A DNA stretch of 64,000 bases, from the NCBI GenBank assembly GCA_963762565.1, contig CAVXLD010000001.1, forward strand, positions 106,498-170,497, read 5' to 3'. This document shows, piece after piece, positions 1-50,457 of the stretch. A program made the translations under genes and the position numbers. Under the pieces are notes generated by a model that was given only the letters and a program-made list of their open reading frames with translations, ran no database searches and was not told the origin of the DNA. Origin of the DNA: an uncultured Verrucomicrobiae bacterium (GTDB lineage Bacteria > Verrucomicrobiota > Verrucomicrobiia > Chthoniobacterales > JAFAMB01). Each line of letters opens with the position of its first letter. The first letter of the stretch is position 1.

Positions 1-54
1 AGCAAGAGCCGAACGGTGAGGCGGAGATGGGAAATTAGGCTGCGCATGACAAGC

Positions 55-250
55 AGGAGCTAGGAGCTAGAATCTAGGAGCTAGAAGTTCGCTTCGGGGT
101 TTTTGGATAGTGCAATCGAGGGACAGATTTCGTGCCGTCATTTAACATTCGTTGTGTAAGATTCGCGCTCATTTTGATGTCTCCTAGATCCTAGATTCTA
201 GCTTCTAGCTTCTAGCTCTCTAGCTCCTAGCTCCTAGCTTCTAGCTCCTA
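55..250. repeat. Inverted-word cassette, P arms (GGAGCTAG / CTAGCTCC heptamer arrays)
   Basis: Left arm 55-87 is aggagctaggagctagaatctaggagctagaag. Right arm 181-250 is the longer CTAG-rich reverse-complement array. Unique 93-nt core at 88-180. Confidence 0.85.
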
Positions 251-448
251 CAGCGACCAACAGCCGATAGCCAACGGGTAGGAGCCAGGTCTGCGCGCAC
301 GAGTGGAACTTCGATTGGCTGGGATGAACGACGTTCCCGCTCCATACGCTTTCCGGTTAAGGTTCATGCTGGATCTCCTATGCCTTTTTCCCTTGGCTAC
401 CGGCTGTTAGTCACTGGGAGTTGCCACAGCAAGGTAACGGGGATTCTT

Positions 449-563
449 TCACAACAAGGCCACAAAGGCGCCAAGACTGAACAGGTTCAAAAAAAGGCTT
501 TTTTCGAAATCCACTATCTGTCTCAGTCGTTTTGTCTCTGCGGCCTTTGCGACCTTGCTGTGA
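449..563. repeat. Inverted-word cassette, Z arms (CACAAAGG-type)
   Basis: tcacaacaaggccacaaaggc (449-469) pairs with gcctttgcgaccttgctgtga (543-563), 18/21 complementary. The core contains an A-run/T-run hairpin. Confidence 0.7.
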
Positions 564-766
564 ACTATTCTGTCTCCTTGTTGCGTTCTAAAAATTCACT
601 GATCATGATCAGCACACAAAGTTCGCGAAGCTGGGTCCGCTCTTCCGAACTGAGGCCGTCATCGTTTCCCGCCGATTCTTCCTGCCCCATGACCAATGGG
701 TTTATTTCATGTAATGGCTTCATTATTTTATTCGGTCCTTGAGACACCCATCTTCGTGGCTGAAAT

Positions 767-1516
767 TCATCCACCCACAACCCGAGGGGTAGGTTCTCCT
801 TCGTTTTCGTTGTTCTCGGCCACGATCTGACCGTCGAAGAGATGCACGGTTCGGTCCGCATAACCGGCAAATCGTGGATCATGGGTTACCATACAAATGG
901 TAGCGCCGCCCTGATGCAATTCGGATAGCAAATCCATTACGGCGTCACCGTTTTTGCTATCCAAGTTACCCGTTGGCTCGTCGGCCAGCAGGATCGATGG
1001 TGAACCAACCAACGCTCGGGCTACCGCCACGCGCTGTTGTTGTCCACCACTCAGCTGATTCGGATAGTGCCGTTGCCGATGGCTCATCCCGACTCGATCC
1101 AAGGATTGCAGAACCCGCTGTTTACGTTCGCTCCTGGGCATCTCGCCGCGATAGGTCAATGGTAGTTCGACGTTCTCGTATACCGTCAAGTCACCGATCA
1201 GGTTGAAACTCTGAAAAATGAATCCGATTTCCCGGTTACGGATCCTGGCTCTCTCGGACAGCTTCAGTTGTTCAACTTGCCGCCCATTCAGCCGGTAGGC
1301 CCCTTCCGAAGGCGAGTCTAGCAGACCTAGAATCGATAGGAGCGTCGATTTGCCGCAACCGCTCTGGCCGGCGATCGCCACATATTCGCCCTTCAAAATC
1401 TCGAGATAGATACCGGCTAACGCATGGGTTTCAATCTCGTCAGTAAGAAAGACTTTCTTTATCGCGTCTAGGTGGATGAGGGGTTCTGGGTTCACGTTTG
1501 GCAGTTCGCTGTTCAC
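767..1516 (-). CDS. ABC transporter ATP-binding protein (MacB/LolD-type)
   Basis: Walker A GQSGCGKST, ABC signature LSGGQQQRVAVARAL, Walker B ILLADEPTGNLD. GTG start. Same strand as the FtsX permease and HlyD adaptor. Confidence 0.9.
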   Translation of the reverse strand: MNSELPNVNPEPLIHLDAIKKVFLTDEIETHALAGIYLEILKGEYVAIAGQSGCGKSTLLSILGLLDSPSEGAYRLNGRQVEQLKLSERARIRNREIGFIFQSFNLIGDLTVYENVELPLTYRGEMPRSERKQRVLQSLDRVGMSHRQRHYPNQLSGGQQQRVAVARALVGSPSILLADEPTGNLDSKNGDAVMDLLSELHQGGATICMVTHDPRFAGYADRTVHLFDGQIVAENNENEGEPTPRVVGG

Positions 1517-1604
1517 GGTTGAGGTTGGCGGTTAGCGGTTTGCAGTTGTCGGTTAGCGGTTTCAATCGTTCTCGTCCTCGCTCTCGTAATCGTCCTCGTC
1601 CTCG
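1517..1604. repeat. Unpaired word arrays X' (CGGTTAG/CGGTTTG heptamers, 1517-1563) and Q (CGTCCT hexamers, 1567-1604)
   Basis: Tandem units are readable directly. The same words occur in inverted pairs at 9554-9860, 16685-16770, 29424-29587 and 50329-50457. Confidence 0.8.
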
Positions 1605-1783
1605 ATTCGCTTTGGTTTCTGTTCACGGTGGGCGTTTTAGCGTGGTAGGCACGAAATAGTAATCGGTGCTCGTGTTTCGCGCTGGGTAGCCGGTTAGCGA
1701 CCGTTGAACCACTTTCACTACACATGCGTGGTAACCAAAGTTTCGGATTCATTTGAAATTTTTTCGGAGTTTTATTTTTCCGT

Positions 1784-1814
1784 ACCAATCACCAATCACT
1801 TCTCACCTCTCACG
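1784..1814. repeat. H-type word array (CACCAAT / CACTTCT heptamers), unpaired
   Basis: accaatcaccaatcacttctcacctctcacg lies immediately downstream of the permease stop (1820). It is related to the arrays at 4465-4545 and 8107-8155. Confidence 0.7.
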
Positions 1815-1819
1815 TTCCC

Positions 1820-4246
1820 TCACTCCTGCCGCAATGCGGTCACGGGATCTATATTCATCGCTCGTCGTGCAGGTAAATAATTCGCGAGTAGACCAACCGC
1901 GATTAAAAGGAAAATCACTCCCAGGAAAGTCTCTGGATCGGTTGCTCTAACACCGTAAAGCAGGCCTTGGATCAGTTGGGTCAGGCAGACAGCCGCGAAC
2001 AAACCGATGGCAATCCCGAGCCCGATCAGCTTTCCTGCTTGAACCAAAAGCAGGAAGAACAGATCTCGCCGTTGGGCGCCGATAGCGGCGCGCACCGCGA
2101 TTTCCCGGGTTCGCTGCGCGACTCCGTATGATATAACGCTGTAGATTCCCATCGCGGCCAGGATCAGCGCTACTACTGCAAAACTACCAACAAAGCAGAG
2201 GTTTAGGCTCCGATCACCTATGGATTCCGCAATCAATTGGGACCACGGTTTAACCCTGTCCAGCGGCACCATAGGATCGATCTCGGCGATCTTCTGCCGT
2301 ATAGGATTAACGAGAGTTTGAGGATCGATTGAATCTGCCGCCCGAACAACCAAGACCATACCCAGTGCCAGATTTGATCCTCCAAGCCCGTAATGCGGCG
2401 CCTGGCTTACCGGATAATAGAATTCATCGCGAACCGGGGCCGTTAATCCAAAGTGATGGACGTCGCCGACAACGCCAACAATGGTCCCGGTCCAACCGCT
2501 TTCGTTATCGATCTTATTTCCAATCGCGTCTTGAGGGCTCTTCCAGAACCGAAGCGCCATCGAACGGTTGATAAGAATTCTTGGAGGAACATCCGGCCCG
2601 TCTTCTGGGCTAAAAAGGCGTCCAGCAATTAGCGGAATGCCGGCGGATCGAAAATAGTCACCATTGATCACGCGGAATTGGGCAACCGGTTCATGGCCTG
2701 GAGCAAACGCAGGTCTGCCCACAATCTGGAATCCAGTATCGGTATCTCCCCCAGTTAATGGTAACAAAGTAATTGCTCCAGCTGCGGTTACTCCGGGGAT
2801 CCCAGCCATCTTTTGTTGGATCGATTGATAAAAGGACCGAACGGATTCATCCGTGGGATAGCGGGCAGGCGGCAACGAAAGCGAAGCGGTTAAGATTTTC
2901 TCAGGGTGTTGTATACCGGAATCGGTTTCCTCTACCTTAAGAAAAGAACGGAGTAGCAGGCCGGCGCAACTGAGCACAACCAGCGCGCAGCTAATCTCGG
3001 CGATGACCAGCCCATTTCTTATCAGGGCTTGACGGATCCCACCCGCTGAGCCGCGCGAGGTCTCTCGGAGCACATGCTGCGGTCCTACTCGGTCGGCCAC
3101 CGCGAGCGCCGGCACTAGTCCACAAACGGTTCCAATCAGAAGGGTAAGCACCAATGAAAACAGAAGACCAAGCGCATTCATGTGGATTTCGGATGCGCGA
3201 GCCAAATGGTCTTGGGCTAGAAATGTGAATACTCTTGTCCCCCAACCAGCTAAAATGATTCCCAGGAGCCCTCCGCTAATGCCCAGCAAGAGACTCTCCG
3301 CCAGCGACTGTCGGGCTAACCGCCAACGGCTTGCACCAAGCGAAGCTCGAATGGCGAACTCTCGCCTTCGGTTCAACGCCCGCGACAACAACAGATTCGC
3401 CAAATTGAACGACGCGATCAGCAGCATGCAGGCAACCGCCCCTTGCAGCATCAAGAGCCCGGCACGCTGGCTGCCAACCATGTCCTCCTGCAGCGGAACC
3501 AGTCGCACGCCAAAGCCGGTATTATTCTTCTGGTCTTCGCGCGCAAGATCAGCAGCGATTTCCGACATCTGGTTCCTGGCTTGGGTGATATTCACACCCG
3601 GTTTCAGTCTTCCGTAAATCTGAAGCCAACGATTTCCCCGATCCGCGCTTTGCCCCGGATTGAATACTAGCGGTATCCAGAGTTGAACCGTTTCATCTGG
3701 AAAATGAAACCAGCCCGGCGCAATCCCAACGACCGAATAAGTCTCCGCATTTAATTGAATGCGCTTCCCAAGAGCTGCTTCGGCAGATCCAAATAACTCC
3801 CGGCCCAGACCTTCGCCCAGAACGACAACATGCCCTTGTCCGGGGTTATCTTCATTCGGCAAAAAGCTCCGACCTAGGTGTGGGCTAACGCCCATCAAGT
3901 TAAAATAATTTGGCGAGACAGCTGCGATCGAAATTTCTTGGGCGCCTTGATTACTCTCCAGAGCAATTTTTCGCGTTCGGCAGGCCGCCATCTCATCGAA
4001 GACAGTGTTTCGGTCCCTCCAATCCTGGAAGTCTAAAACTGAAACCTCGCTGTACGGCCAAGCCGGTTCCCAGTCAGAGTAAATGTGCACCAGTTGTTTA
4101 GGCTGAGAGACTGGAAGTGACCTGAGTAATACCGCGTCGACTATACTGAACACGGTGACATTCGCCCCAATGCCAATCCCCAGCGTCAACACCGCCATGG
4201 CTGTAAAGCCGGGGGATTTCGCTAAGAGGCGTAGGGCATGGCGCAT
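1820..4246 (-). CDS. Duplicated FtsX/MacB-type ABC permease (ADOP-family-like)
   Basis: 808 aa. The N-terminus MRHALRLLAKSPGFTAMAVLTLGIGIGANVTVFSIVDAVLLRSLP is typical of the duplicated orphan permease family. There are two TM-bundle/periplasmic-domain halves. Confidence 0.85.
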   Translation of the reverse strand: MRHALRLLAKSPGFTAMAVLTLGIGIGANVTVFSIVDAVLLRSLPVSQPKQLVHIYSDWEPAWPYSEVSVLDFQDWRDRNTVFDEMAACRTRKIALESNQGAQEISIAAVSPNYFNLMGVSPHLGRSFLPNEDNPGQGHVVVLGEGLGRELFGSAEAALGKRIQLNAETYSVVGIAPGWFHFPDETVQLWIPLVFNPGQSADRGNRWLQIYGRLKPGVNITQARNQMSEIAADLAREDQKNNTGFGVRLVPLQEDMVGSQRAGLLMLQGAVACMLLIASFNLANLLLSRALNRRREFAIRASLGASRWRLARQSLAESLLLGISGGLLGIILAGWGTRVFTFLAQDHLARASEIHMNALGLLFSLVLTLLIGTVCGLVPALAVADRVGPQHVLRETSRGSAGGIRQALIRNGLVIAEISCALVVLSCAGLLLRSFLKVEETDSGIQHPEKILTASLSLPPARYPTDESVRSFYQSIQQKMAGIPGVTAAGAITLLPLTGGDTDTGFQIVGRPAFAPGHEPVAQFRVINGDYFRSAGIPLIAGRLFSPEDGPDVPPRILINRSMALRFWKSPQDAIGNKIDNESGWTGTIVGVVGDVHHFGLTAPVRDEFYYPVSQAPHYGLGGSNLALGMVLVVRAADSIDPQTLVNPIRQKIAEIDPMVPLDRVKPWSQLIAESIGDRSLNLCFVGSFAVVALILAAMGIYSVISYGVAQRTREIAVRAAIGAQRRDLFFLLLVQAGKLIGLGIAIGLFAAVCLTQLIQGLLYGVRATDPETFLGVIFLLIAVGLLANYLPARRAMNIDPVTALRQE

Positions 4247-4256
4247 GGCGGGGGAA

Positions 4257-4545
4257 GTGATTAGTGATTAGTGATTGGTGGTGCTGCGCTCACGCCGATC
4301 GGCCGTTTTTTGCGTTCTCACGAAAAAAGCAACCTCACAGACCGGCAGCGAATACACTGGAAAGGGCGAATCGATTAGTCCTCTGGAGTCGTGGCGTTTC
4401 CAAAAGCTCTCACGATGCGCGATTTGTTTATTGAAAATTTTCATTTTGTTAGCTCCATCACGCTCACCAATCACCAATCACCAATCACCAATCACCAATC
4501 ACCAATCACCAATCACCAATCACCAATCACCAATCACCAATCACC
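4257..4545. repeat. Inverted-word cassette, H'/H arms (GTGATTA... vs CACCAAT x about 11.5)
   Basis: Left arm 4257-4283 is gtgattagtgattagtgattggtggtg. Right arm 4465-4545 is an 81-nt CACCAAT array. Unique core is about 180 nt. The cassette fills the permease/adaptor intercistronic gap. Confidence 0.9.
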
Positions 4546-5869
4546 TCAGTTGTATGCGTTCATGACTATCAAAGGCGCTGGTATCGGACAGAATCACGTG
4601 GTCACCCGGCGTTAGGCCATTTAGGATTACAACTTTGGTGGCGGAACCACGACCCAACTGGACCTTAGTTCTGGTGGCGGTGACACCATCTGCACTCAAC
4701 CGGAACAAACCGATAGTAGAATCATCCTGGCCGAAAGCGGGTCGACCGACGTAGATGGCATCAGCTAAACGTTCGAGTTCGATGGTTCCTTCCACACTCA
4801 GGTCGGGTCTAGCTCCTTTAGGTAGTTCGATCCCGTGAAAGGTAACATCGACGAGCACGGTCCCTTCGCTCACCGCCGGATCGATTCGAGCCACCGTACC
4901 GCTGACGATACTGCCGTTGCGCATATCAACTTGCGCGGTCTGCCCGATGGCAATGTCCCGGGCTTGAGTTTCCGGGATTTTGATTTGTGCTTTCAGCTTG
5001 GTGTTGTCCGCCACTCGGGCAAGGTTGGTGCCGGCAGAAACCCGCTGCCCGACCTCGACAGCGATTTGCTGGAGGACACCGTTCATTCCGGCTCGCACCT
5101 GTAGGGCATCGACCTGTCCATGGCGTAATTCGGCTTGGGCTTCGGCCTGTTCGAGATCCGTTTGGGCAACTGCCATTCGCGGCGCCATGGATCTCTTCGC
5201 GAATTCGTAACGCTGTTTCTGTACCTCAAAATTCGCGGATAATTCCGTGGCTGCGATCTTCGCCTTCTGAAAGTCGAGAGTCGAAATCAGGCCGCCTTTC
5301 GACAACCGTTCATCTGCCTCAAACTCGGCCTGAGCGGTGTCGCGATCGGCCTGAGCTTTGGTCAAGTTGGCCTGTTGCTCCAGCATTTCTCCTTCTAGCT
5401 CCGCTTGTAGCTGGGTCAGTTTCGCTTGAGCGCTCTTGGCTGCGGCATCCGCGTCCCTCGCTTCTTGCTCTAACTCGGCGCTGCTCAACTTCAATATCAC
5501 GGAATCCGCGGTTACTTCTGTTCCCGGCCAGATCACGATTTGCTCGACTCGGGCGTCGGTTCGGGCAGGGATCCAACGGACGTCTTCGGGAACTAGCGTT
5601 CCGATTCCACGCACGTCGCGAATCAGCGGTCCGCGCGACACGGTATCAATCCAGACCGAGCTTCGGTCTACCGAGGGCAGAGCCGGTTCAAGCCGGGCAA
5701 CAAAAATACTAACTCCGGTCACCACCGCTGCCGCCAGCAAAAGCAGCAACACATTTCTGCGCCATTTCTTTTGGCGGTAACCGATTCGCGGAATGTCCAT
5801 CCGAGAACCGTCCGCCGGGACAGAGAAAACTGGTTCTACTTTCTTTTTTGGCAGCACGCTGAGCGTCAC
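4541..5869 (-). CDS. HlyD/MacA-family periplasmic adaptor (membrane fusion protein)
   Basis: 442 aa with an N-terminal TM segment, a long coiled-coil (AELEQEARDADAAAKSAQAKLTQLQAELE...) and beta-barrel C-terminal domains. The stop TGA lies inside the last CACCAAT unit. Confidence 0.85.
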   Translation of the reverse strand: MTLSVLPKKKVEPVFSVPADGSRMDIPRIGYRQKKWRRNVLLLLLAAAVVTGVSIFVARLEPALPSVDRSSVWIDTVSRGPLIRDVRGIGTLVPEDVRWIPARTDARVEQIVIWPGTEVTADSVILKLSSAELEQEARDADAAAKSAQAKLTQLQAELEGEMLEQQANLTKAQADRDTAQAEFEADERLSKGGLISTLDFQKAKIAATELSANFEVQKQRYEFAKRSMAPRMAVAQTDLEQAEAQAELRHGQVDALQVRAGMNGVLQQIAVEVGQRVSAGTNLARVADNTKLKAQIKIPETQARDIAIGQTAQVDMRNGSIVSGTVARIDPAVSEGTVLVDVTFHGIELPKGARPDLSVEGTIELERLADAIYVGRPAFGQDDSTIGLFRLSADGVTATRTKVQLGRGSATKVVILNGLTPGDHVILSDTSAFDSHERIQLR

Positions 5870-5871
5870 GG

Positions 5872-6114
5872 TTAAGTATTTTGGACAAAGCAGACCGGTT
5901 GGATATTCTGTTGATCAGCGACGACTGCAGAAGCTCTCGGAGAGTAGGATTGCGCAGAAGCCGGTGTGATCTGAGACAGACTGAAGAGAATGCTGATCGC
6001 GGTGCTTGCGGCAAAGACCGCCCACACGGCGGACTCTACGAAACCAGTACTACGAACCGCTTTTTGGGATTCTCGTTGAAATTCCATGATCGAAGAGAAT
6101 GGGATGATTTTCAT
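5872..6114 (-). CDS. Small hypothetical exported/membrane protein (leader ORF of the pump operon)
   Basis: ATG at 6114 is preceded by GAAGG 8 nt upstream. A hydrophobic stretch AVWAVFAASTAISILFSLSQITPASA resembles a signal peptide. The stop is 2 nt from the adaptor start. No family recognised. Confidence 0.35.
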   Translation of the reverse strand: MKIIPFSSIMEFQRESQKAVRSTGFVESAVWAVFAASTAISILFSLSQITPASAQSYSPRASAVVADQQNIQPVCFVQNT

Positions 6115-6140
6115 AATAACAGCCTTCGTCCATCCCATAG

Positions 6141-6156
6141 GCATTTGCCGTGCCAA
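6141..6156 (-). promoter_or_regulatory. Candidate sigma-54 (-24/-12) promoter
   Basis: The minus strand reads cTTGGCACGgcaaATGCc. That is TGGCACG 7/7, with GG-to-GC spacing identical to the consensus TGGCACG-N4-TTGCW. It lies upstream of the leader ORF and pump operon, and an NtrC-type activator is encoded nearby. Confidence 0.5.
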
Positions 6157-6189
6157 GCCAGAAAGTCGCTATCTAAGCGGCTTTCTATG

Positions 6190-6267
6190 AACGACTTATA
6201 AAAAGTCGTTATTTTAGAACCCTATGGAAAACGATCTCAAAATAGGATTGCGATTCTCAATTTGAGA
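6190..6267. promoter_or_regulatory. Possible upstream activator/bending sites for the sigma-54 promoter
   Basis: Perfect 8-bp-stem AT-rich hairpin aacgactt-ataaa-aagtcgtt (6190-6210) and imperfect palindrome tctcaaaat...aatttgaga (6235-6267), 35-110 bp upstream of the -24 element. Confidence 0.3.
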
Positions 6268-6268
6268 C

Positions 6269-6439
6269 GGAAGGGTGAGGGCAAAAGGGCGAAGGGGCGA
6301 GGTTTAAGTGGACTCAGTGGACGGAGTGCACGAAGTGTGCCGCGCCAAACGCCAAACGCCAAACGCCAAACGCCAAACGCCAAACGCCAAACGCCAAACG
6401 CCAAACGCCTTTCACCTTTCACTCTTCACCTTGCCTTCC
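6269..6439. repeat. Composite cassette: purine-rich G arms enclosing an R word (AGTGGACNN) and a K array (GCCAAAC x about 9)
   Basis: ggaagggtgagggcaaaagggcgaagg (6269-) pairs with cctttcacctttcactcttcacc (6408-6439). Inside are taagtggactcagtggacggagtg and a GCCAAAC array at 6344-6409. Confidence 0.8.
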
Positions 6440-7803
6440 GCGGCGAGCAGAGGTAGACGCAGTTCGGCAATGCAGCCGATGATTCCGTCGATGCGATTCT
6501 CGAGTGTCAGGCTGCCGCCATGGGCTTCTGCGATTTGGCGGCAGAGGACCAGGCCGATTCCGGAACCACCGGACTTGGTCGTGAAGAATGGGACGAACAA
6601 GTTTGTGGGATTAGCGATTCCGCTGCCTTCGTCGATGACCTGGACTAGCCAATCGTTTTGTGACCTGTTCCAGGCGATTTCCACGTCTCGACCTTTCTCT
6701 AAACTGGCATCAACGGCGTTCTTCACCAGATTGATCAAGAGTTGCTCTATTTGATCGCGATCAATATTGACCACGGCTTTCTCCGTCGACGCCATTTTCA
6801 CCGTGAGACGCGTCTCCAAGGCGACTACCTGGCGGACGATTGGGCCAAGCTCGACCGGACGTAAGGTCGGGGGAGGCAACCGGGCCAGCCGGGCATAGGC
6901 GGTCATAAAGCGACCTAACGCTGAGGCCCGATCCCTAATGATCCCCATCCCACCCCGTAGGTCACTTTCCCAAGAGCTTGGCCGGGCGGCCGGGGTGAGG
7001 GTGAGCAGATCGCTTAAACTCTCGGCAATCGACTGGATCGGAGCTAAAGAATTGTTAATTTCATGGCCAAGGACTCGGATCAATCTTTGCCAGGCAATCC
7101 GTTCCTCTTCGCGCAAGGCGCGGCCGAGATCGGTTAGCACTAATAGTTGATGAGGGCGACCGCCTTCGCGGAAAGTGCTACGGCGCAGACCTAAGCGAGT
7201 TCCGGATCGACCAGGAAAATCTCGATCTATGAGACGAACCGGATCTCCAACCAGACAATCATCGAGACCTAACTCAATTGCATCATGTCCGAGAGCATGT
7301 TCCTCACGGCGCATTAACAGATGGGCGCCGGCATGGTTCATCAGTCGTAGCTTTCCGTCTTCGTCGAAGGTAAAAACCGCGATTTCGACAGCGTCGATTA
7401 CCGCTTTTAACAATGCGCTCGCTTCGGTGGCTTGTCGTCTTTCGACTAACAATTGGTCGCCCAACGCGTTGACTTCCCGCATGACTTCACCCAAAGAATC
7501 GGCTTGGCGAGCTGCCCGGGCGCGCAACGAATAATCACCTTCGCGGAGTGCAGCGAGTAAATTTGTCAACGTGCGGATAGGAAAAAGCACCTGTTGCCGC
7601 ACAGCAGAAACGGCAGCGATCCAAATTCCGACCGCAACAACGCCGATAGTAACCCGGACTGACAAAGGCCAGGATGAATGCCAGAGCAAGAACAATGTTG
7701 CGGCCACTGCAGGCCCACCCGCAACGAAGGTAAGAACCTGGACGGAGCTTTCAAATGGTAGATTCCGCCAGCGGAGTAATGGACGTCGCGAGGAGTCGTG
7801 CAT
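6412..7803 (-). CDS. Sensor histidine kinase (2 TM with about 7-aa loop, HAMP, PAS, HisKA, HATPase)
   Basis: H-box VLGHEINNSLAPI, G-boxes DEGSGI and GGSGIGL. The two TM helices are separated only by HSSWPLS, which is the intramembrane-sensing type. The last residues GKVKSER and the stop are encoded by the repeat arm. Confidence 0.85.
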   Translation of the reverse strand: MHDSSRRPLLRWRNLPFESSVQVLTFVAGGPAVAATLFLLWHSSWPLSVRVTIGVVAVGIWIAAVSAVRQQVLFPIRTLTNLLAALREGDYSLRARAARQADSLGEVMREVNALGDQLLVERRQATEASALLKAVIDAVEIAVFTFDEDGKLRLMNHAGAHLLMRREEHALGHDAIELGLDDCLVGDPVRLIDRDFPGRSGTRLGLRRSTFREGGRPHQLLVLTDLGRALREEERIAWQRLIRVLGHEINNSLAPIQSIAESLSDLLTLTPAARPSSWESDLRGGMGIIRDRASALGRFMTAYARLARLPPPTLRPVELGPIVRQVVALETRLTVKMASTEKAVVNIDRDQIEQLLINLVKNAVDASLEKGRDVEIAWNRSQNDWLVQVIDEGSGIANPTNLFVPFFTTKSGGSGIGLVLCRQIAEAHGGSLTLENRIDGIIGCIAELRLPLLAAEGKVKSER

Positions 7804-7844
7804 TTAGAAGAGGTAATTTCACGCCAAGACGCAAAGACGCAAAG

Positions 7845-8155
7845 GTGATTCGTGATTCGTGATTAGTGATTAGTGATTGGTGATTGGTGGAGGCACTTGG
7901 TGGGGCGAGGCTCCCGAAAGAGTAAGAAGTTCTATCAGAGCTCCCGATGTTTCGCCGCTAAAGAGTTTGTTAGGCCTATTGACGCGCCGAGCCGGGGCCC
8001 AGCGATAGACCACGGCTCGGCGCCCTTAACGGCCTAGCATCGCGGGTCGGCGGGGTTAACCGCAAGGGCTTCGCTATCGCGATGGACCTTTCGGGAGCCT
8101 CGCCCCACCAATCACTTCTCACCAATCACCGATCACGTCTCGCCCTACCAATCAC
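7845..8155. repeat. Nested cassette: H' array / F1 element / H array
   Basis: gtgattcgtgattcgtgattagtgattagtgattggtgattggtgg (7845-7890) pairs with caccaatcacttctcaccaatcaccgatcac... (8107-8155), enclosing F1 copy 1. Confidence 0.85.
7899..8109. mobile_element. F1 palindromic element, copy 1 (MITE-like or structured RNA; 211 bp)
   Basis: Terminal inverted repeats ggtggggcgaggctcccgaaag / ctttcgggagcctcgccccacc. Conserved central hairpin gcgccgagccggggcccagcgatagaccacggctcggcgc (7984-8023). Confidence 0.75.
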
Positions 8156-9567
8156 AGCCCATATTGCTGCAACCGCCGGTAAAATGTGCTACGACTCAAA
8201 CCGAGAGCTTCCGCAGCGCGTCGAGCATTACCACCGTACCGATTAAGCGCTTTCTTGATTAACAACTTCTCGATGTCCTCCAAGGTCATTTCATCGAGGC
8301 GCGATGAATCAGACGGAGTTTGTCCTCCGATATCGGCCAAGCCGAGATCCGGAGGCCGGATCTGAGCACTGTCTGTCATCAGAACGGCGCGTTCTATGGT
8401 GTGATCGAGTTCCCGCACGTTCCCCGGCCACCGATGATAGGTGAGAGCCTTCTCGGCAGCAGGGTCAATCCCGGTAATCCGCTTAGCGTACCGGCTAGCA
8501 TGACGGTCCAAGAAGTGTTGGGCCAACGGAACGATGTCTTCCGGCCGGTCGCGCAAAGGCGGAATCTGAATCTCGACTGTTCGCAGTCGGAAATAGAGGT
8601 CTCGCCTGAACCGGCCCGATTCAACCTCAGCCGGTAAATCGGAATTCGTCGCCGACAAAAGCCTGACACTCGCGCGCCGAGTTTTGGAAGAACCGAGCCG
8701 CTCAAACTCGCCGGTCTCAACCGTGCGCAAAAGTTTGGCCTGTTGCGAGAGTGGAATATTCCCGATCTCATCCAGAAATAAGGTCCCTCCGTCGGCGATC
8801 TCGAAACGTCCGGCCCGCTCACTCTTGGCGTCCGTAAAGGCTCCTTTCATGTGGCCGAACAGTTCGCTTTCAAACAGGTTCTCGTTCAGGCCTCCCATGT
8901 TGACTGTCACAAAGGCCTTTTCAGCTCGCTGACTGGCGACATGAATCGCTCGCGCCACCACGCCCTTTCCCGTCCCGTTTTCGCCGGTGACCAAGACATT
9001 CGCATCAGAAGGCGCAATTCGTTGGATCGTCTCGACGACGGCGCGCATTCCCGATGATTGGGCGATTAGTCCAGTGGTCGCTAACGCCGTTTTCCGACTG
9101 GGCATCAGGCCGGCATCTCCGCGAAGGACCTGATTTTCCGACTCCAATCGCTCGCCGCGCAGCTCGGCAGCCGAAAAATCAAGCTGCGTGCGCACAATGG
9201 CCGAGACGCGCGAATTTTCCCAGGGCTTTTCAAAGAAGTCCCGAGCGCCGGTTCGCATGGCAGCAACCGCCAGATCGACCGTCGCCCACGCCGTCATGAC
9301 TACAATTGGTGGAGCGCCCTCGATTTTTTTGATCTGGGCGATAAGCTCGAGACCTTCCTGGCCGCCCGTCGTATCACGAGCGTAATTGAGGTCCAACAAT
9401 ATCAGCGAGACCTCGCTATTTTCGAGAGTCTCCATCACCTCTTTAGGAGAAGTCGCCAACGCAGTCTCGTACCCTTCCTTCGCGAGAAGTATTCGGAGCG
9501 CCTCCCGGACAGCGGCTTGGTCATCGGCGATCAGGATGCGGGGTTTTTTTGCGGGTTCTCGGTTCAC
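8152..9567 (-). CDS. Sigma-54-dependent response regulator (NtrC family enhancer-binding protein)
   Basis: REC domain (ILIADDQ...), AAA+ Walker A GENGTGKG, GAFTGA-type loop KGAFTDA, C-terminal Fis-type HTH LGLSRSTFYRRLQQYGL. The ORF is open to 9654, but residues 1-29 are repeat-encoded, so the GTG at 9567 (MNREPAKKPRILIADD) is the likelier start. Confidence 0.88.
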   Translation of the reverse strand: MNREPAKKPRILIADDQAAVREALRILLAKEGYETALATSPKEVMETLENSEVSLILLDLNYARDTTGGQEGLELIAQIKKIEGAPPIVVMTAWATVDLAVAAMRTGARDFFEKPWENSRVSAIVRTQLDFSAAELRGERLESENQVLRGDAGLMPSRKTALATTGLIAQSSGMRAVVETIQRIAPSDANVLVTGENGTGKGVVARAIHVASQRAEKAFVTVNMGGLNENLFESELFGHMKGAFTDAKSERAGRFEIADGGTLFLDEIGNIPLSQQAKLLRTVETGEFERLGSSKTRRASVRLLSATNSDLPAEVESGRFRRDLYFRLRTVEIQIPPLRDRPEDIVPLAQHFLDRHASRYAKRITGIDPAAEKALTYHRWPGNVRELDHTIERAVLMTDSAQIRPPDLGLADIGGQTPSDSSRLDEMTLEDIEKLLIKKALNRYGGNARRAAEALGLSRSTFYRRLQQYGL

Positions 9568-9860
9568 GGTTCGCAGTTCACGGTTGGCGGTTGCGGTTGG
9601 AGTTGTTCCTCGTCCTCGTTCACGTCGTCGTCCTCGTCCTCGAAAGGTTTGCACCGGGACCCAGCGGCAACATCCGCTCTATGTTGATACAGGAAATAAC
9701 AATCATCGAAAAAGCCTTACAAGATACGCGTGACCAGTAGAAAGGCCCATTCGCGAAGAATTAGCAACAACTTCTCATTGGTTGCGTGAGGATAACCGAG
9801 GGGACAACCGCAAACTGCAAGCCGCTAACCTTGACACCCTCGAGGACGAGGACGAGAACG
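9554..9860. repeat. Cassette with non-nested word order X'-Q-core-X-Q'
   Basis: X' at 9554-9600 (ggttcacggttcgcag...), Q at 9608-9642 (cctcgtcctcg...), X at 9805-9830 (caaccgcaaactgcaagccgctaacc), Q' at 9837-9860 (ccctcgaggacgaggacgagaacg). Confidence 0.8.
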
Positions 9861-9933
9861 ATTATCAGCCAGCAGCCGTGCCCCGCACTGTGTGCATTGA
9901 CGACGCTGAGGGTGTTAGTAGACTCCGCAACCA

Positions 9934-10296
9934 ATGGAAGTGATTAATCGTAACGAGGTCGCGGCATTCGTCGGACCGGATGGCGGCATTATCCGGGAGC
10001 TTGCTGCTAGCCGGAATTCATCGGCCCGAAAACAGAGTTTGGCCGAGGCTACGATTCCGGTCGGAGGAACGGTTACCGAACATTTTCACAAAACCACAGA
10101 AGAGTTTTACTACATCCTCAGCGGAACCGGCCTGATGAAGATCGAGGACGAACTGAGAGAAGTGGGTCCGGGAGACACGGTTATTATCATTCCCGGTAAA
10201 CGCCACAAGATCACAAACAACGGCCAAGTTCCGTTAGTTCTGCTGGCGTGCTGTTCACCTGAATGGACTGCAGAAGATCAGGTGCTGGTGGACTGA
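9934..10296 (+). CDS. Cupin domain protein
   Basis: 120 aa with the two cupin motifs GGTVTEHFHKTTEEFYYILSG and GDTVIIIPGKRHKITNNG. Confidence 0.75.
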   Translation: MEVINRNEVAAFVGPDGGIIRELAASRNSSARKQSLAEATIPVGGTVTEHFHKTTEEFYYILSGTGLMKIEDELREVGPGDTVIIIPGKRHKITNNGQVPLVLLACCSPEWTAEDQVLVD

Positions 10297-10304
10297 TTAA
10301 AACC

Positions 10305-10809
10305 AAATTTCACCACAGAGACACAGAGGACACGGAGAACTGATCACAGACTAATTATAACACTTTACATTTATGGTGTGTATGCGATGATCGGAATATG
10401 GAAGGGTTTAGAAATGACCTAACGCATGCCGCAATCGGCATGGCCATCGAAGTACACCGGGAGCTCGGCCCCGGGCTCCTCGAATCGGCTTACGAAGAAT
10501 GCCTCGCCTACGAGTTGCACCAATCCTCCTTGAGATTTGTTCGACAAAATCCCTTGCCTATCAAATACAAAGGCTTGGAGCTAGAATGCGGCTACCGGGT
10601 AGACCTCCTCATTGAAGATGAGCTAGTTATCGAGTTAAAGAGCGTCGAAGAGCTGCTCCCGATCTTCGATGCCCAAGTCTTAACCTACATGAAGTTGGCC
10701 GACAAGCATTTAGGGCTGTTGATCAATTTTAACGTGCCAATGCTGAAAACGGGAATCAAAAGATTTGTCCGTTGAGCTCCGTGTCCTCTGTGTCTCTGTG
10801 GTGAAATTT
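10305..10809. mobile_element. ORF-bearing cassette with perfect 33-bp terminal inverted repeats (U word CACAGAG-type)
   Basis: aaatttcaccacagagacacagaggacacggag (10305-10337) is the exact reverse complement of 10777-10809. It encloses only the GxxExxY gene. Confidence 0.85.
10398..10775 (+). CDS. GxxExxY family protein (PD-(D/E)XK-like)
   Basis: 125 aa. Motif GLLESAYEECLAYEL matches GxxExxY, followed by YRVDLLIEDELVIELKS, which is typical of the family. Confidence 0.85.
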   Translation: MEGFRNDLTHAAIGMAIEVHRELGPGLLESAYEECLAYELHQSSLRFVRQNPLPIKYKGLELECGYRVDLLIEDELVIELKSVEELLPIFDAQVLTYMKLADKHLGLLINFNVPMLKTGIKRFVR

Positions 10810-12375: not shown

Positions 12376-13070
12376 CCCGGTTTTTACCCCAAAGGGGTAA
12401 TAGGACTCAGCCTGGGGTTTTAACCCCAGGAATGCGCCAAAAAAAAGACCCCCGCCCTGAAAGGGCGGCAGATTTTTGGAATGACAAATACATCAATATA
12501 TTATGTAATAGATACAATGTCTTAATCACTGGCACGCATCTTGATTCACCTTGTCTTTTCGACCAAGAACCGGGTCGCGTTCTTGCAATCTCAACAGCTC
12601 CGATCTGAAGTTCACGCGTATCTTACTGCGACTTTACGCGCCCTGGATTGCGAACCCGTTCAGGTCGGCGGAGTCAGCGATCACGTACATCTACTCTTTG
12701 GTCTTTCCCGAACCGTCTCGCTGGTAGATGTAGTTAAACAGCTTAAAACCAGCTCCACGAAGACGATTCGAGAGAAAGGTCATCACGCTTTCAGTTGGCA
12801 AACCGGCTACGGCGCCTTCTCAGTCAGCGAATCGAATAAAAGCGCAGTCATCGACTACATCATCAATCAAGAAATCCACCATCGTAAGATGACATTCCAA
12901 GAAGAAATCAGGGTGCTTCTAACCAAGCACAGTATGCGTTTCGATGAGCGATACGTCTGGGATTGAGACACTCTCAATCTGCCGCCCTTTCAGGGCGGGG
13001 CATTTTTGGGGCGCATTCCTGGGGTTAAAACCCCAGGCTGAGTCCTATTACCCCTTCGGGGTACAACCCC
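12376..13070 (+). mobile_element. Y1 (HUH) transposase element flanked by about 95-bp inverted REP-like repeats (RAYT-like unit)
   Basis: Left 12376-12471 and right 12979-13070 are near-identical reverse complements. Each contains the hairpins ggggttttaacccc and cccgccctgaaagggcgg. Confidence 0.8.
12517..12966 (+). pseudogene. IS200-like / REP-associated tyrosine transposase homologue with an in-frame TAA at codon 3
   Basis: Reads ATG TCT TAA then SLARILIHLVFSTKNR. HUH motif at HVHLL and catalytic-Tyr region WQTGYGAFSV. The longest intact ORF restarts at TTG 12541. Confidence 0.7.
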
Positions 13071-43096: not shown

Positions 43097-43227
43097 AGCG
43101 CCCCGTGGAGCGTGCCTCGCTTGCGAGTCCGACGAACCACCCATTGCGTATTTCCTCTTTCCGCGGGCTGTCAGGCGAAAATATCTCAGAGTCGGCCTTG
43201 CAAGCGAGGCACGCTCCACGGGGCGCT
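43097..43227. repeat. F3 cassette with perfect 28-bp inverted repeat
   Basis: agcgccccgtggagcgtgcctcgcttgc (43097-43124) is the exact reverse complement of 43200-43227. 75-nt core. Lies between DUF2334 and PHP-GT4, and the right arm contains the DUF2334 stop codon. Confidence 0.9.
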
Positions 43228-43990
43228 ACTTCCCCACCTCAACGCTCGCCGCCTTGAGATGATTGGCGATAAACTTTTCGTACGATAACGGTTGCCGGTC
43301 CTGAAGAGCAGCGGTGACCAAGCTCTTAACATGGGACCAAACTGCGGGAATCTCGCAATCTGCGGGGTGAATCCCGATCCGCAGCAACGGTTTATCTCGT
43401 AACCGAGAAAGCAGACCTTGGTTCCAAGCCAGGCTCACCATCCGCCTCCAAGGGGCTCGAGTGCTCCACACCAACGATCGTGAGTAATAATTGTGAACCC
43501 CGTCAAAAACTTTAACGGAGCCCACATTGGTAATGTAAGAAAACCCCACCTTGCGGACAGCGGCTTCCGCTTCGTAGCCCAAAAGCCAAGCCGGTGCTAC
43601 GAACCCGTTCAGCTTTCGGTCCAGGAATGCCAAGTCCTCAATACCCATTTGGAGGCGGGAAATCGCTTCATCCCTGGCGAGATCGAAAAATTCTCCTTCA
43701 CCGGCCGTGTACACTTGAGTCGTGAATTTGGTAATACCGGCATCCGTTGGTTTGGGATTGCGAGCGTGATAATAGCCGTGCAGCACGGGTTCGTAACCTT
43801 GTCGTACTCGATCTGATACCCACTCTTTGAATGCAACGTTATCCCGGACCGGCGCGTTGTGGTGATGGTTTGGGATGACCAGTAACGAGCCCTCGGAGAC
43901 ACCCAGGCTGCGAAGGGCCTCTATAATTTTGTCACAGCTCGCCTGAGTCAAAGGCGATACATCATGAACGGAAACGACGAGAGCTCTCAT
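43226..43990 (-). CDS. DUF2334-family protein (polysaccharide-deacetylase-like fold)
   Basis: MRALVVSVHDVSPLTQASCDKIIEALRSLGV...LVIPNHHH...VLHGYYH is typical of DUF2334. The ATG at 43990 overlaps the upstream gene by 29 nt. Confidence 0.7.
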   Translation of the reverse strand: MRALVVSVHDVSPLTQASCDKIIEALRSLGVSEGSLLVIPNHHHNAPVRDNVAFKEWVSDRVRQGYEPVLHGYYHARNPKPTDAGITKFTTQVYTAGEGEFFDLARDEAISRLQMGIEDLAFLDRKLNGFVAPAWLLGYEAEAAVRKVGFSYITNVGSVKVFDGVHNYYSRSLVWSTRAPWRRMVSLAWNQGLLSRLRDKPLLRIGIHPADCEIPAVWSHVKSLVTAALQDRQPLSYEKFIANHLKAASVEVGK

Positions 43991-45464
43991 AAAAGTCAGA
44001 CAAACGCTGGCGAAGCCCGAAAACGAGACAGAGTGCACCGCTCACAATCGGAAGCCAATCTCCAAAAGAACCGTAGGGCGTCATATCATTCGCCACCGGA
44101 AAGTCGAGGCTATATGTGGACAATAGACGTGTCCTCGGCGGCGCCTCCTTTACCACTCTGCCGCTAGCGGTCTGCATAAAGGCTCCGGCTCGATCGGACT
44201 CAAAGATGATAGGCCTTCCGAGGGAGACGCCCCAGCAACGAAGGTTCTCGCTAAATTGTTCCTCACCAATCGCTGTCCCTTTCGGAGTATCAACCAAGAC
44301 AACAAATCCTTGAGCCGGGACCTTGAGCCCGGCTTTGAGCGCCTTTAACGACATGCCTTCCTGGTTAATGAATGGAAGTAGCGCAACACCTTTGACGGAA
44401 AAGCTCTGAAGATTCTTGGGAACCTGATCTGCTAAGATTTGAAAACCGGGATTCTTTTGAAACGAGAGCACACTTTTGACTGTGGTCGGAAGATAGGCGG
44501 AATAACCAGAGATGGGTGCATTACTAGCGGCGGCTACCCCTGTGATTACGCCGACATCGGGCGCCGCTGACTTCCGATCGAAGCTCTTAGATTCTATCCC
44601 CCCTTCAGTGATTCGCCGCCAAACCAGCAAATCCGATTTCAAAGCCGCTACTCCAGGAAGCAAACTGTTGAGCTCGCTCGCGCTGGATCCGGGCGATGCC
44701 GTGATGCTAATCCTGAGCTGGAGAGGTTGCGGTCGAGGCTGAGCAAATTGGAAACCGGCGGCGGCAATGACGAAGAGCATCGCCAAAGTAAAAACGATGT
44801 CGAAACGGGCCGCCCAGTTCATCCTCCCCGGCTGCAATGCGAGCCGCCGAATCGCCAGAAAAATGATCGCATTGGCAAATACCGCGATGAAACTCAAACC
44901 GAACGGACCCGTGACTCTAACAATTTGGAGGAGCGGAAGATTTGCGGCGATCGGCAAGCCGACTGGATTCCAAGCGGTCAAGATCATTCCGCGACACCAT
45001 TCTAGGAACGTCCATGAACTTGCGATCAGAACCGCCTGACGGAGATGCGCGGTGGAAACACGCCACGCCTCGGCATTACCGGGCGCCCCCATAAAAATCG
45101 GCTGAAGCCCTTTTTTGCGCTTCTTTTCATCGGGTTTAGCCAGCTCCGGGAGCTTACAGAATCGCCAGACGAACCAACTCCAAACGATACCTAGAAGGCC
45201 AAGCACACCCAGAATCGTTCCGAGCTCTTGATACCGATGTTCTTTCCACAGCCAGTGAAACGTGATGAGAGCAAAGCTCGTGGAAAACAGGGCGCCCTGA
45301 ACGATCACCATTCCCGCTCTTCCTCTTAGGGAAAGCAAAGAGAATAGGATCGGAACAAAAGCAACCCAAATAAGCCAAGACAAGTTCCAGGGAGGCAGAC
45401 CTAGGGCAAGCAAAGCGCCCGCAAGAAGACTCAATAGGAGCTGCCACAACCAAGCCAATCTCAT
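43962..45464 (-). CDS. Apolipoprotein N-acyltransferase (Lnt)-like membrane protein with divergent CN-hydrolase domain
   Basis: N-terminus MRLAWLWQLLLSLLAGALLALGLPPWNLSWLIWVAFVPIL and C-terminus TPYGSFGDWLPIVSGALCLVFGLRQR are collinear with Lnt. The ATG at 45464 overlaps the upstream stop (ATGA). Confidence 0.7.
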   Translation of the reverse strand: MRLAWLWQLLLSLLAGALLALGLPPWNLSWLIWVAFVPILFSLLSLRGRAGMVIVQGALFSTSFALITFHWLWKEHRYQELGTILGVLGLLGIVWSWFVWRFCKLPELAKPDEKKRKKGLQPIFMGAPGNAEAWRVSTAHLRQAVLIASSWTFLEWCRGMILTAWNPVGLPIAANLPLLQIVRVTGPFGLSFIAVFANAIIFLAIRRLALQPGRMNWAARFDIVFTLAMLFVIAAAGFQFAQPRPQPLQLRISITASPGSSASELNSLLPGVAALKSDLLVWRRITEGGIESKSFDRKSAAPDVGVITGVAAASNAPISGYSAYLPTTVKSVLSFQKNPGFQILADQVPKNLQSFSVKGVALLPFINQEGMSLKALKAGLKVPAQGFVVLVDTPKGTAIGEEQFSENLRCWGVSLGRPIIFESDRAGAFMQTASGRVVKEAPPRTRLLSTYSLDFPVANDMTPYGSFGDWLPIVSGALCLVFGLRQRLSDFYESSRRFRS

Positions 45465-46660: not shown

Positions 46661-46800
46661 TGGCGGACTCTGCGATATTTCAACGAGCATCCGTACGCCG
46701 GTTCTTGCGGCAAGGACCAAGACTCTGGCACGAGAAAATCTTCCGTCCAGTACTTTGGTAGGGGGGAACGCCGGGAACGAGCTAGAACGCCGGGAACGCT

Positions 46801-47011
46801 GGTAGGGCGAGGCTCCCGAACCTACACAAAGGGTTAGCAAAGGCTAAACTCCGAGGCGAATCGCTGATACGCTGTACCGACAAACGCGCCGAGCCGTGGC
46901 CCAGCGATAGATCACGGCTCGGCGCGCTTCATGGCCTATGAACACCGTTCGCCAGGTGACGTACATGGCCCTTCGCGATAGCGATGGATTCTTCGGGAGC
47001 CTCGCCCCACC
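46801..47011. mobile_element. F1 palindromic element, copy 3 (211 bp)
   Basis: TIRs ggtagggcgaggctcccgaa / ttcgggagcctcgccccacc. The central hairpin at 46886-46925 is 37/40 identical to copy 1, and the length is the same as copy 1. Confidence 0.8.
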
Positions 47012-50185: not shown

Positions 50186-50457
50186 CGCGTTTGGCGTTTG
50201 GCGTTTGGCGTTTTGGCGTTTTGGCGTTTGGCGTTTGGCGTTGGGCGTTTGGCGTTGGGCGTTGGGCGTTGGGCGTTTGGCGTTGGGCGTTGGGCGTTGG
50301 GCGGTTCACCGTTCGCTGGTTGGCTTTTCGTGCTCGTCCTCGTGCTCGACGAAACCCGGGCCACCTCGAAAAGAGATCCATCATCCCTGTTCTCCTTTTG
50401 CTGGCCATCAATCGCTTTCAGGCGTCGAACGCGCTCTCGAGGACGAGGACGAGAACG
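50186..50457. repeat. K' array (GTTTGGC/GTTGGGC x about 17) followed by a Q-core-Q' cassette
   Basis: Heptamer array at 50186-50304. Q at 50329-50348 (cgtgctcgtcctcgtgctcg) and Q' at 50434-50457 (ctctcgaggacgaggacgagaacg). Confidence 0.9.

Follow-up and report, generated by a model that had tools for sequence, protein, structure and literature searches.

We analysed a 64,000-nucleotide (nt) stretch of DNA from an uncultured Verrucomicrobiae bacterium, referred to below as the window, and found that its left end carries what is probably an inducible envelope efflux or detoxification module under a dedicated sigma-54 two-component system. The module consists of an NtrC-family activator, a membrane-anchored histidine kinase and, behind a predicted sigma-54 promoter, the genes for a small membrane protein, a periplasmic adaptor, a permease of the ADOP family and an ABC (ATP-binding cassette) ATPase. 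Gene content, kinase topology, co-conservation, promoter and enhancer are borne out by sequence and comparative evidence, and on the same evidence the predicted regulatory link from kinase and activator to the pump operon is strongly supported. By analogy, the whole would work like a two-component-controlled MacAB-type efflux module.

Results

Gene calls in the window were made from its list of open reading frames (ORFs) together with scans against the Pfam and NCBIfam family libraries. All genes of the block lie on the minus strand, in the transcription order activator, kinase, small ORF, adaptor, ADOP, ATPase, 52-codon ORF and second ADOP. The features are the following:

8152–9567, minus strand: NtrC-family sigma-54 enhancer-binding response regulator, 471 aa from GTG 9567
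6412–7803, minus strand: histidine kinase, 463 aa (Pfam, NCBIfam, hydropathy, AlphaFold2, alignment, profile match to the PDB)
6233–6269, minus strand: putative enhancer (upstream activator sequence) of two dyads (sole matches in the window, conservation)
6167–6210, minus strand: two short dyad-symmetric elements (compensatory changes in the arms)
6140–6156, minus strand: −24/−12 promoter element of sigma-54 type (sequence, highest score in the window, conservation)
5872–6114, minus strand: small single-pass membrane protein, 80 aa (hydropathy, homologue clusters)
4541–5869, minus strand: periplasmic adaptor (membrane fusion protein, MFP; HlyD_3, HlyD_D23, TIGR01730)
1820–4246, minus strand: ADOP permease, 808 aa (TIGR03434, MacB_PCD, FtsX, hydropathy)
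767–1516, minus strand: ABC ATPase of the MacB/LolD/DevA/DarD group, separate from the permease (PF00005)
565–723, minus strand: second small ORF, 52 aa, core DDGLSSEERTQLRELCVLIMISEFLE (core conserved in four relatives)
47 to 1, minus strand: start of a second ADOP permease (MRSLISHLRLTVRLL...; N-terminus matches ADOP paralogues)

A preliminary description of this DNA had proposed one block of six co-oriented genes with these domains. Their common strand, their identities and the ADOP assignment all hold; the block, however, continues past 767 with the 52-aa ORF and the second ADOP. The core DDGLSSEERTQLRELCVLIMISEFLE of the 52-aa ORF, for which NCBIfam gave no match, is present at the equivalent position in four related loci (L087, L170, L171 and L172). 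The N-terminus MRSLISHLRLTVRLL resembles the ADOP paralogues that stand behind the ATPase gene in L087, and at least two ADOP genes follow the ATPase gene in L087, L170 and L171. As this second ADOP continues beyond the window's left edge, the cluster exceeds the block first reported. No further ADOP genes were found in the other 54 kb of the window.

Conservation of the gene neighbourhood was followed in two directions. In the forward search, one genome per species was scanned with an alignment of the kinase, the best 80 loci were kept (mostly Acidobacteriota, with some Verrucomicrobiota), and homologues of the window proteins were located by tblastn. The activator gene lies directly upstream of the kinase gene in 74 of the 80 loci, and the remaining six have an upstream flank shorter than 1.4 kb. 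In most relatives the genes for activator and kinase directly adjoin or overlap. Pump genes stand beside the pair in 65 of the 80 loci, co-oriented in 63 and divergent in two. Among the 15 loci that lack them, 14 have a flank of less than 5 kb, and the one exception is L085, which lacks a pump although both of its flanks are there. Each phylum has its own fixed orientation and order of genes. The Acidobacteriota have adaptor, ATPase, one to at least four ADOPs and often a second ATPase paralogue, then activator and kinase, with a median gap of 164 nt between the last pump gene and the activator; the Verrucomicrobiota, like the window, have activator and kinase followed by the pump genes. Identity to the window proteins is 70–84% for the ATPase, 55–69% for the activator, 50–58% for the kinase, 44–62% for the adaptor and 28–40% for the neighbouring ADOPs.

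In the reverse search, metagenome contigs were searched with an alignment of the adaptor, and loci of at least 6 kb were considered. Among the loci listed with more than about 3 kb of upstream sequence, most have the activator–kinase pair directly upstream of the adaptor gene. The window's gene order is shared by L087, whose kinase is 81% identical, and by L170, L171 and L172, whose small ORFs are 66–78% identical, L172 being without the first ADOP. The association of two-component and pump genes, which the preliminary description had drawn from this one locus, is thus a case of co-conservation seen from both directions, and the regulatory coupling clears by a wide margin the condition, absence of co-conservation, that this description had set for giving it up. 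Because the block is conserved across genomes, it is more than a chance arrangement, and the module recurs in most related soil Acidobacteriota and Verrucomicrobiota. As a side observation, the second ATPase paralogue, with about 45–50% identity to the window ATPase, occurs in many related modules; the window clade has one ATPase.

We then turned to the DNA upstream of the pump genes. The preliminary description had placed a sigma-54-type promoter at 6141–6156, and this position was upheld. The −24/−12 site TTGGCACGGCAAATGC at 6156–6141 (T-TGGCAC-GGCAA-ATGC-C, to 6140) has its GG and GC in the canonical register, received the top weighted score in the 64 kb on both strands, and is conserved in relatives. 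A strict scan for TGGCAC-N5-TTGCW with one mismatch misses it because the site has two; the sole match of that scan, at 12530, is unrelated and is no more than expected by chance. The strict scan was replaced by the weighted score together with conservation. Upstream of 17 adaptor orthologues, 14 (82%) have a site scoring at least 18, as against 8% of random 730-nt segments, and five score at least 20, as against 0.2% of such segments. In 12 of the 17 orthologues the site lies 25–66 nt before the start of the adaptor alignment; the remaining sites lie 130–660 nt upstream, some with a small ORF in between, as in the window (287 nt).

The putative enhancer of the window consists of the dyads TCTCAAATTGAGA and TCCTATTTTGAGA, 20 bp apart and about 80–115 bp upstream of the −24 element. 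They represent a dyad variant of the window clade with a 3-nt centre, and their occurrences at 6233–6269 are the only matches in the window. Aligned with five relatives, the window shows an unchanging block CGTCTCAAATTGAGAATCnnAATCCTATTTTGAGATC within surrounding DNA that cannot be aligned; the promoter TGGCAyGsCAAATGCCT and the 5′ leader to the ATG are likewise invariant. Related loci carry a dyad rTCCCR-N4-YGGGAC about 100–130 bp upstream of their sigma-54 sites, with a second copy or half-site about 22 bp after the first. The strict form TCCCR-N4-YGGGA has 72 sites in 1.86 Mb, of which 48 fall within 900 nt upstream of an adaptor gene. The dyad thus precedes 48 of the 76 adaptor genes with enough flank, against about three expected by chance as estimated from its overall frequency. 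A predicted −24 GG/−12 GC promoter with predicted upstream activator sites is therefore found at the target operon, and the layout so predicted, NtrC-type enhancer, −24/−12 promoter and target gene, is the classic arrangement.

Between enhancer and promoter, at 6167–6210, we found two short dyad elements, AACGACTT-tttat-AAGTCGTT and CGCT-tagat-AGCG. They keep their symmetry through compensatory changes, with double changes in 6 of 19 pairs, a covariation that is weak evidence because only six sequences are available. These elements could be RNA hairpins in a transcript reading through from the kinase gene, or a DNA-bending element. Inspection by eye of the same interval, in which the two covarying dyads lie, gave no convincing match to a site for integration host factor. 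Scans for sigma-70 promoters and terminators returned counts equal to the shuffled expectation, and no match to an intrinsic terminator was found between the pump genes on the coding strand.

Almost all intergenic spacers of the window contain tandem arrays of heptamers, or in some cases hexamers, such as TCACCAA ×11.7, CGCCAAA ×9.6 and GCGTTTG ×16, for example at 4464–4545, 6343–6409, 7845–7889 and 50187–50303. Often the array at one end of a spacer is the reverse complement of the array at the other (GTGATTG... / ...CAATCAC), so that a read-through RNA would form long stems. A structured element resembling a miniature inverted-repeat transposable element parts the activator gene from the kinase gene at 7804–8151, with heptamer arms and a perfect 24-bp stem (7897–7920 / 8088–8111). 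Its end motif GGGGCGAGGCTCCCGAAAG occurs again at 14343, 19789 and 33045, and as a pair at 46804/46990.

The activator has REC, Sigma54_activat (222 bits), AAA_lid_14 and HTH_8 domains, and its orthologues are 461–476 aa long. The ORF can be read back to 9654, but this extension is derived from repeats. The loop motif is GAFTDA instead of GAFTGA in all 79 of 79 orthologues, and GAFTDA is among the GAFTGA-loop variants that are still able to activate transcription (PMC4641369). A receiver domain, an AAA+ sigma-54 domain with a GAFTGA-type loop and a Fis-type helix-turn-helix are thus all present, which places the protein in the NtrC family. No named subfamily fitted: the top NCBIfam match, PrsR (TIGR02915), reached 388.1 bits against a cutoff of 502.6, NtrX (NF051870) reached 324.9 against 600, and AtoC, ZraR and NtrC also scored under their curated cutoffs. 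On these cutoffs the pair was ruled out as NtrYX, PrsKR, AtoSC or ZraSR. In the related locus L001, whose kinase is 82% identical, the activator gene itself is preceded, at 7802–7995, by a dyad of the window type, TCTCAAATTGAGA, and a TGGCAC-N6-TGC site, which suggests autoregulation of the activator there; no such pair of dyad and sigma-54 site was found upstream of the window's own activator.

Hydropathy analysis of the kinase gave two hydrophobic segments, at residues 23–41 and 47–68, joined by the linker HSSWP(LS) of 5–7 residues. An AlphaFold2 model built with 25 homologues (mean predicted local distance difference test 69, membrane hairpin 79–88) has a helix at 17–41, a loop at 42–46 and a helix at 47–88. 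These are followed by a second long helix at 103–138 (of low confidence as a monomer), a PAS fold at 141–225, the dimerisation and histidine phosphotransfer (DHp) helices at 232–306 with His247, and then the catalytic domain. Since two helices and a loop of 5–7 residues leave no room for a periplasmic domain, the two-helix, short-loop layout described earlier was confirmed, and topology prediction by hydropathy and AlphaFold2 disclosed no periplasmic domain that might have been overlooked.

In the kinase itself, HAMP, PAS (PAS_8) and HisKA stay below the Pfam thresholds, with E values of 0.003, 0.0005 and 0.002, respectively; PAS families are recorded in its homologues, and the family profile aligns with the solved kinase ThkA across the PAS, DHp and catalytic (CA) domains. 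Among distant kinase homologues, pairwise identity amounts to 62–67% in the HAMP, PAS, DHp and catalytic regions, against 43–46% in the membrane hairpin, the least conserved folded part, and 34% in the loop. Within the hairpin, G29 and P31 of the first transmembrane helix are invariant and W61 of the second is nearly so. Most relatives have a loop motif GD(W/F)xPKVQWT, which is absent from the window clade. The view of this kinase as a minimal intramembrane sensor of the Bce/Lia type did not survive, as it has HAMP and PAS regions as conserved as its catalytic core. The JGI family name NtrY was rejected, since the kinase has only two helices as against the multi-helix N-terminus of NtrY, and PrsK (TIGR02916) reached 68.8 bits against a cutoff of 300.

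The permease is a full-length ADOP protein: TIGR03434 scores 869.1 bits against a cutoff of 622.3 and covers residues 1–808. It has two units of MacB_PCD (PF12704) and FtsX (PF02687), with eight hydrophobic helices arranged 4 + 4 and periplasmic core domains at about 41–261 and 432–682, and its closest solved chains are Spr0695 (5xu1) and MacB (5nik). The ADOP family owes the name 'orphan' to the usual absence of an ATPase gene next to its own genes. The window protein agrees with the family as described in its length and duplicated architecture but not in this hallmark, since an ATPase is encoded 304 nt downstream, and most related loci, too, have their ADOP genes together with ATPase and adaptor genes. 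The ATPase scores 117 bits with PF00005, and its best NCBIfam matches are all below their cutoffs. The adaptor scores 115.3 bits with TIGR01730 against a cutoff of 94.9, matches HlyD_3 and HlyD_D23, and has an anchor helix at 40–58; an alternative start codon, ATG 5800 (MDIPR), corresponds to that of most relatives, and the MFP may start there. MacB proper (NF007826) was rejected at 231.8 bits for the ATPase and 109.8 for the ADOP against a cutoff of 966, the ATPase being separate and the permease duplicated, and DevBCA and DarBCD were likewise rejected on curated cutoffs.

The first gene of the predicted sigma-54 operon is the small ORF. Its start codon is ATG 6114 (TTG 6156 falls inside the promoter), and its stop codon lies 2 nt before the GTG of the MFP gene. 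Hydropathy analysis shows one hydrophobic helix at 25–46. Homologues fall into 62 protein clusters with 59–96% identity, one of them from a Verrucomicrobia metagenome-assembled genome. Residues 1–31 and the first part of the helix hardly vary, in contrast to the C-terminal tail, and nucleotide differences among relatives in the conserved part are largely synonymous. What had been called a leader ORF is therefore better described as a conserved small membrane protein than as a leader peptide. The family is restricted to the window clade, an exhaustive profile search having returned 12 representatives, all of the window type. The name 'invasion protein IalB', given by JGI to two members, is unsupported.

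Other loci of the Verrucomicrobiota type carry at the same position a different conserved small protein of about 90–105 aa (MKP..FPxxDxNY..YFxxEA..F) with a C-terminal helix. Anchored at the C-terminus, these counterparts keep a conserved N-terminus in the cytoplasm and expose hardly any tail outside. Comparison of the two families with hhalign aligned the expected motif, but at P = 0.011 and a probability of 4% the match was not significant; we therefore treat them as positional analogues only. None of the small ORFs matched Pfam or NCBIfam, and the family libraries gave no sequence relationship to small proteins of the Psp type. The Acidobacterial modules have no small ORF at this position.

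Discussion

Taken together, these results lead us to propose the following sequence of events. The membrane-anchored kinase, lacking a periplasmic domain, would signal through its HAMP-like and PAS regions and phosphorylate the adjacent activator. The activator would oligomerise on the two dyads about 100 bp upstream and remodel sigma-54 RNA polymerase at TGGCAC-N5-ATGC (6140–6156), opening the promoter. The transcript would encode the small membrane protein, the adaptor, the ADOP, the ATPase, the second small ORF and at least one further ADOP. One ADOP chain, as a covalent pseudo-dimer of MacB-type halves, would combine with two ATPase subunits and an adaptor ring into a MacAB-like machine, which an outer-membrane channel encoded elsewhere would complete, and which would expel periplasmic or membrane-borne compounds. 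Phosphotransfer, pump assembly and the direction of transport we infer by homology. As the kinase has no periplasmic domain, perception would occur in the membrane or through a partner: the most probable place for it is in or at the membrane, and the part that perceives the signal could be the kinase hairpin or an accessory membrane partner, which may be the small protein or the pump. The PAS domain would transmit this signal or add a cytoplasmic input, which its strong conservation leaves conceivable. Small membrane proteins acting as feedback connectors are known in MgrB and PspBC, and by analogy the small protein of the window might play such a part.

Several observations weigh against this proposal or parts of it. 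The −12 element reads ATGC and not TTGC, which leaves the site with two mismatches to the consensus TGGCAC-N5-TTGCW. The spacers of about 300 nt between the adaptor, ADOP and ATPase genes fold very stably (the MFP–ADOP spacer RNA at −111 kcal/mol, z = −5.6), as does the spacer between activator and kinase (the RNA of the 7804–8151 element at −170 kcal/mol, z = −9.5); such spacers could terminate or process the transcript, so that the genes may not form a single operon. The pair stands without an adjacent pump in L002 (56% kinase identity) and L088 (79%), and adjacency is therefore not obligatory. The MacB superfamily also includes mechanotransmitters that transport nothing, such as FtsEX (PMC7828314). 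Finally, no gene for an outer-membrane channel (TolC, or outer-membrane efflux protein, OEP) was found in the 64-kb window.

Of the tripartite pump envisaged in the preliminary description, the channel is thus missing from the window, but the idea gains from related modules, since 12 of 172 loci have a TolC-type (OEP) gene within the module. The OEP gene of L079 and that of L019 stand between the kinase and adaptor genes, each time with its own sigma-54 site, and in several Acidobacteriota it stands between the last ADOP and the activator. These genes give some support to a tripartite pump of the diderm type. The tolC gene is unlinked in E. coli too.

Among known systems, MacAB-TolC of E. coli and relatives, DevBCA and DarBCD have in common with the module an adaptor, a permease with MacB core and FtsX domains, and an ABC ATPase of the same clade. 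MacB has its ATPase fused to a four-helix permease and works as a homodimer, whereas here the permease is a duplicated single chain and the ATPase is separate, more like DevC/DevA or LolCDE. To our knowledge, MacAB is not controlled by sigma-54. The sigma-54 envelope-stress circuits ZraSR and PspF/PspBC likewise use an NtrC-family activator and a sigma-54 promoter for envelope-related genes, although their targets are not ABC pumps. ZraS has a periplasmic metal-binding domain, unlike the kinase here, and PspF, under the control of PspA, lacks the receiver domain that the activator here possesses. Psp signalling involves the small single-pass membrane proteins PspB and PspC, whose genes belong to the target operon, a parallel to the small protein whose gene comes first in the window's operon.

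The likeness to Bce modules is confined to the membrane layout of the kinase and to genomic pairing. Two of six Bce features are found here, namely a two-helix, short-linker kinase input and the co-occurrence of two-component and ABC transporter genes; three are absent, namely a small kinase without further input domains, a BceB-type permease and an OmpR-type regulator. The sixth concerns a physical complex of kinase and transporter, in which signalling needs the transporter. Intramembrane-sensing kinases were reportedly defined by Mascher in 2006 as small and without a further input domain. BceS has no PAS domain, whereas the kinase here has one. BceB has ten helices and one external domain, the ADOP here eight helices and two MacB-type periplasmic domains. 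In Bce modules an OmpR-type regulator acts at a sigma-70 promoter, while here an NtrC-type regulator would act at a predicted sigma-54 promoter, and neither adaptor nor outer-membrane channel is part of a Bce module. In BceRS-BceAB of Firmicutes, which confers resistance to antimicrobial peptides, the kinase likewise lies beside the MacB/FtsX-superfamily transporter that it regulates, with separate ATPase subunits (PMC11009047). Flux sensing has been shown experimentally for Bce modules; the module described here is known from its sequence alone.

Flux sensing of this kind would refine the input step of the proposed mechanism and not replace it. A kinase without a sensor of its own would be switched by the conformational cycling of ADOP and ATPase, and the signal would be the activity of the pump, not the compound. 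It draws on the BceAB–BceS precedent (PMC11009047; PMC7828314), on the two-helix hairpin with a 5–7 residue loop and no periplasmic domain, on the invariant G29 and P31 and the nearly invariant W61, and on the tight and wide co-location of the kinase with a transporter of the MacB superfamily. The same hairpin, however, is the least conserved folded part of the kinase (43–46% against 62–67%), and the window clade lacks the GD(W/F)xPKVQWT loop motif. The kinase also has HAMP and PAS domains, which Bce-type kinases lack, and a permease partner whose architecture is unlike that of BceB. The ADOP copies beside the kinase, only 28–40% identical, vary in number from one to more than four per module, which argues against a one-to-one pairing of kinase and permease. 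We consider flux sensing possible but unlikely. A cytoplasmic cue sensed by the PAS domain, as in NtrY-type kinases, would make the hairpin a mere anchor and the pump one target of a wider regulon; the redox state, a metabolite or a compound already inside the cell are candidate cues. Such a role is in keeping with PAS and HAMP regions that match the catalytic core in conservation, with the JGI family name NtrY, with the profile alignment to the PAS–DHp–CA kinase ThkA and with the relatives that keep the pair without an adjacent pump, and the dyad and sigma-54 site before the L001 activator indicate that targets beyond the pump promoter exist. Yet the enhancer dyad occurs almost only ahead of the pump genes (48 of its 72 occurrences in 1.86 Mb, and in the window nowhere else), the activator falls below the NtrX cutoff (325 against 600 bits), ligand-binding residues were not identified, and a PAS domain may merely transmit signals. 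We hold this account, too, to be unlikely.

The small ORF could alternatively be the precursor of an exported peptide, its variable C-terminal part being released by the pump and sensed by the kinase, on the model of Gram-positive bacteriocin or pheromone loci. Its conserved N-terminal part and variable tail, its place directly before ABC exporter genes and, in the window copy, the sequence PASA-QS after the hydrophobic segment, which resembles a signal-peptidase site, would suit this, and so would the matches to the darobactin exporter, where DarD is the top match of the ATPase and DarB (ADOP) and DarC (MFP) rank lower. But the scores for DarB, DarC and DarD are far under the cutoffs, the AXA-like site is not conserved (ASV, VAV or nothing in relatives), and neither a maturation enzyme nor a peptidase domain is encoded in the cluster. 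In other Verrucomicrobiota the proteins at this position are anchored C-terminally and have hardly any external tail, and the Acidobacterial modules do without a small ORF, all of which makes a peptide locus very improbable. That the genes are chance neighbours without any functional link is hardly credible. ADOP genes are numerous in Acidobacteriota and Verrucomicrobiota, so that random adjacency in genomes rich in ADOP paralogues is not negligible, and L002 and L088 lack the adjacency; against this stand its presence in 65 of the 80 loci, one per species, with a single exception among those with full flanks, the orientation and order fixed per phylum, the co-location specifically of an adaptor and an ATPase orthologue and not just of any ADOP, and the position of the conserved sigma-54 promoter and enhancer, precisely where the pump operon begins.

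The proposed sigma-54 two-component module has a partial precedent. An in silico survey of sigma-54 promoters (PLoS One 2025; PMC12316311) reports that in Opitutia, Bacteroidia and gamma-Proteobacteria predicted promoters are enriched at genes for COG0577 (FtsX-type permease) and COG1136 (ATPase), and presents this as the first connection of sigma-54 with this transporter family. The passages retrieved from that survey do not describe a dedicated kinase/activator family, enhancer dyads, the ADOP subfamily or small membrane proteins, and 'Acidobacteri' has zero occurrences in its text. The survey weakens the case for novelty of sigma-54 control at an FtsX-type pump. In the literature searched we found no report of an ADOP with a sigma-54 two-component system. 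That literature mentions ADOP permeases only as uncharacterised, and we found in it neither a dedicated kinase/activator family nor its link with ADOP genes, the enhancer or the small proteins.

In Acidobacteriota and Verrucomicrobiota, two of the major phyla of soil, ADOP permeases are a large paralogous family, and a conserved module would make this 'orphan' family testable. A reporter with a single promoter would allow a screen for inducers, and hence for substrates, and with the enhancer motif the regulon can be mapped out in complete genomes. How ADOPs obtain their energy is suggested by the ATPase and adaptor encoded beside them, and there is a hint that this conserved ATPase and adaptor may serve many ADOP paralogues. 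If the kinase does read transporter activity, flux sensing would extend from Firmicutes to diderms, with a different class of output. On the most far-reaching reading, the circuit would correspond in diderms to the Bce modules and exert master control over the ADOP system in its entirety. A kinase without a sensor of its own would follow how adaptor, ADOP and ATPase are working, possibly via the small protein, and the ATPase, unusually conserved at 70–84% identity across phyla (against 28–40% for the neighbouring ADOPs), would serve together with the single adaptor as a hub shared by scattered 'orphan' ADOPs. This is speculative, and we think it quite unlikely; if true, one sigma-54 switch would govern a multi-specificity detoxification system in two dominant soil phyla.

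Other features of the window

An Rfam search of positions 1–10400 with E values up to 1 gave nothing except a spurious lncRNA match. In the window as a whole, the only Rfam match at gathering level is an Acido-Lenti-1 RNA (RF01687) at 13018–13063 on the plus strand, with 38.3 bits against a gathering score of 37. Another envelope-related cluster lies on the minus strand at 43226–46840 and consists of an Lnb-type protein (Lnb_N and 5TMH_Lnb; 45461–46840), a protein with an LNT_N domain (43962–45557) and a DUF2334 protein (43226–44038). This cluster may be relevant to lipoprotein acylation in the host lineage.

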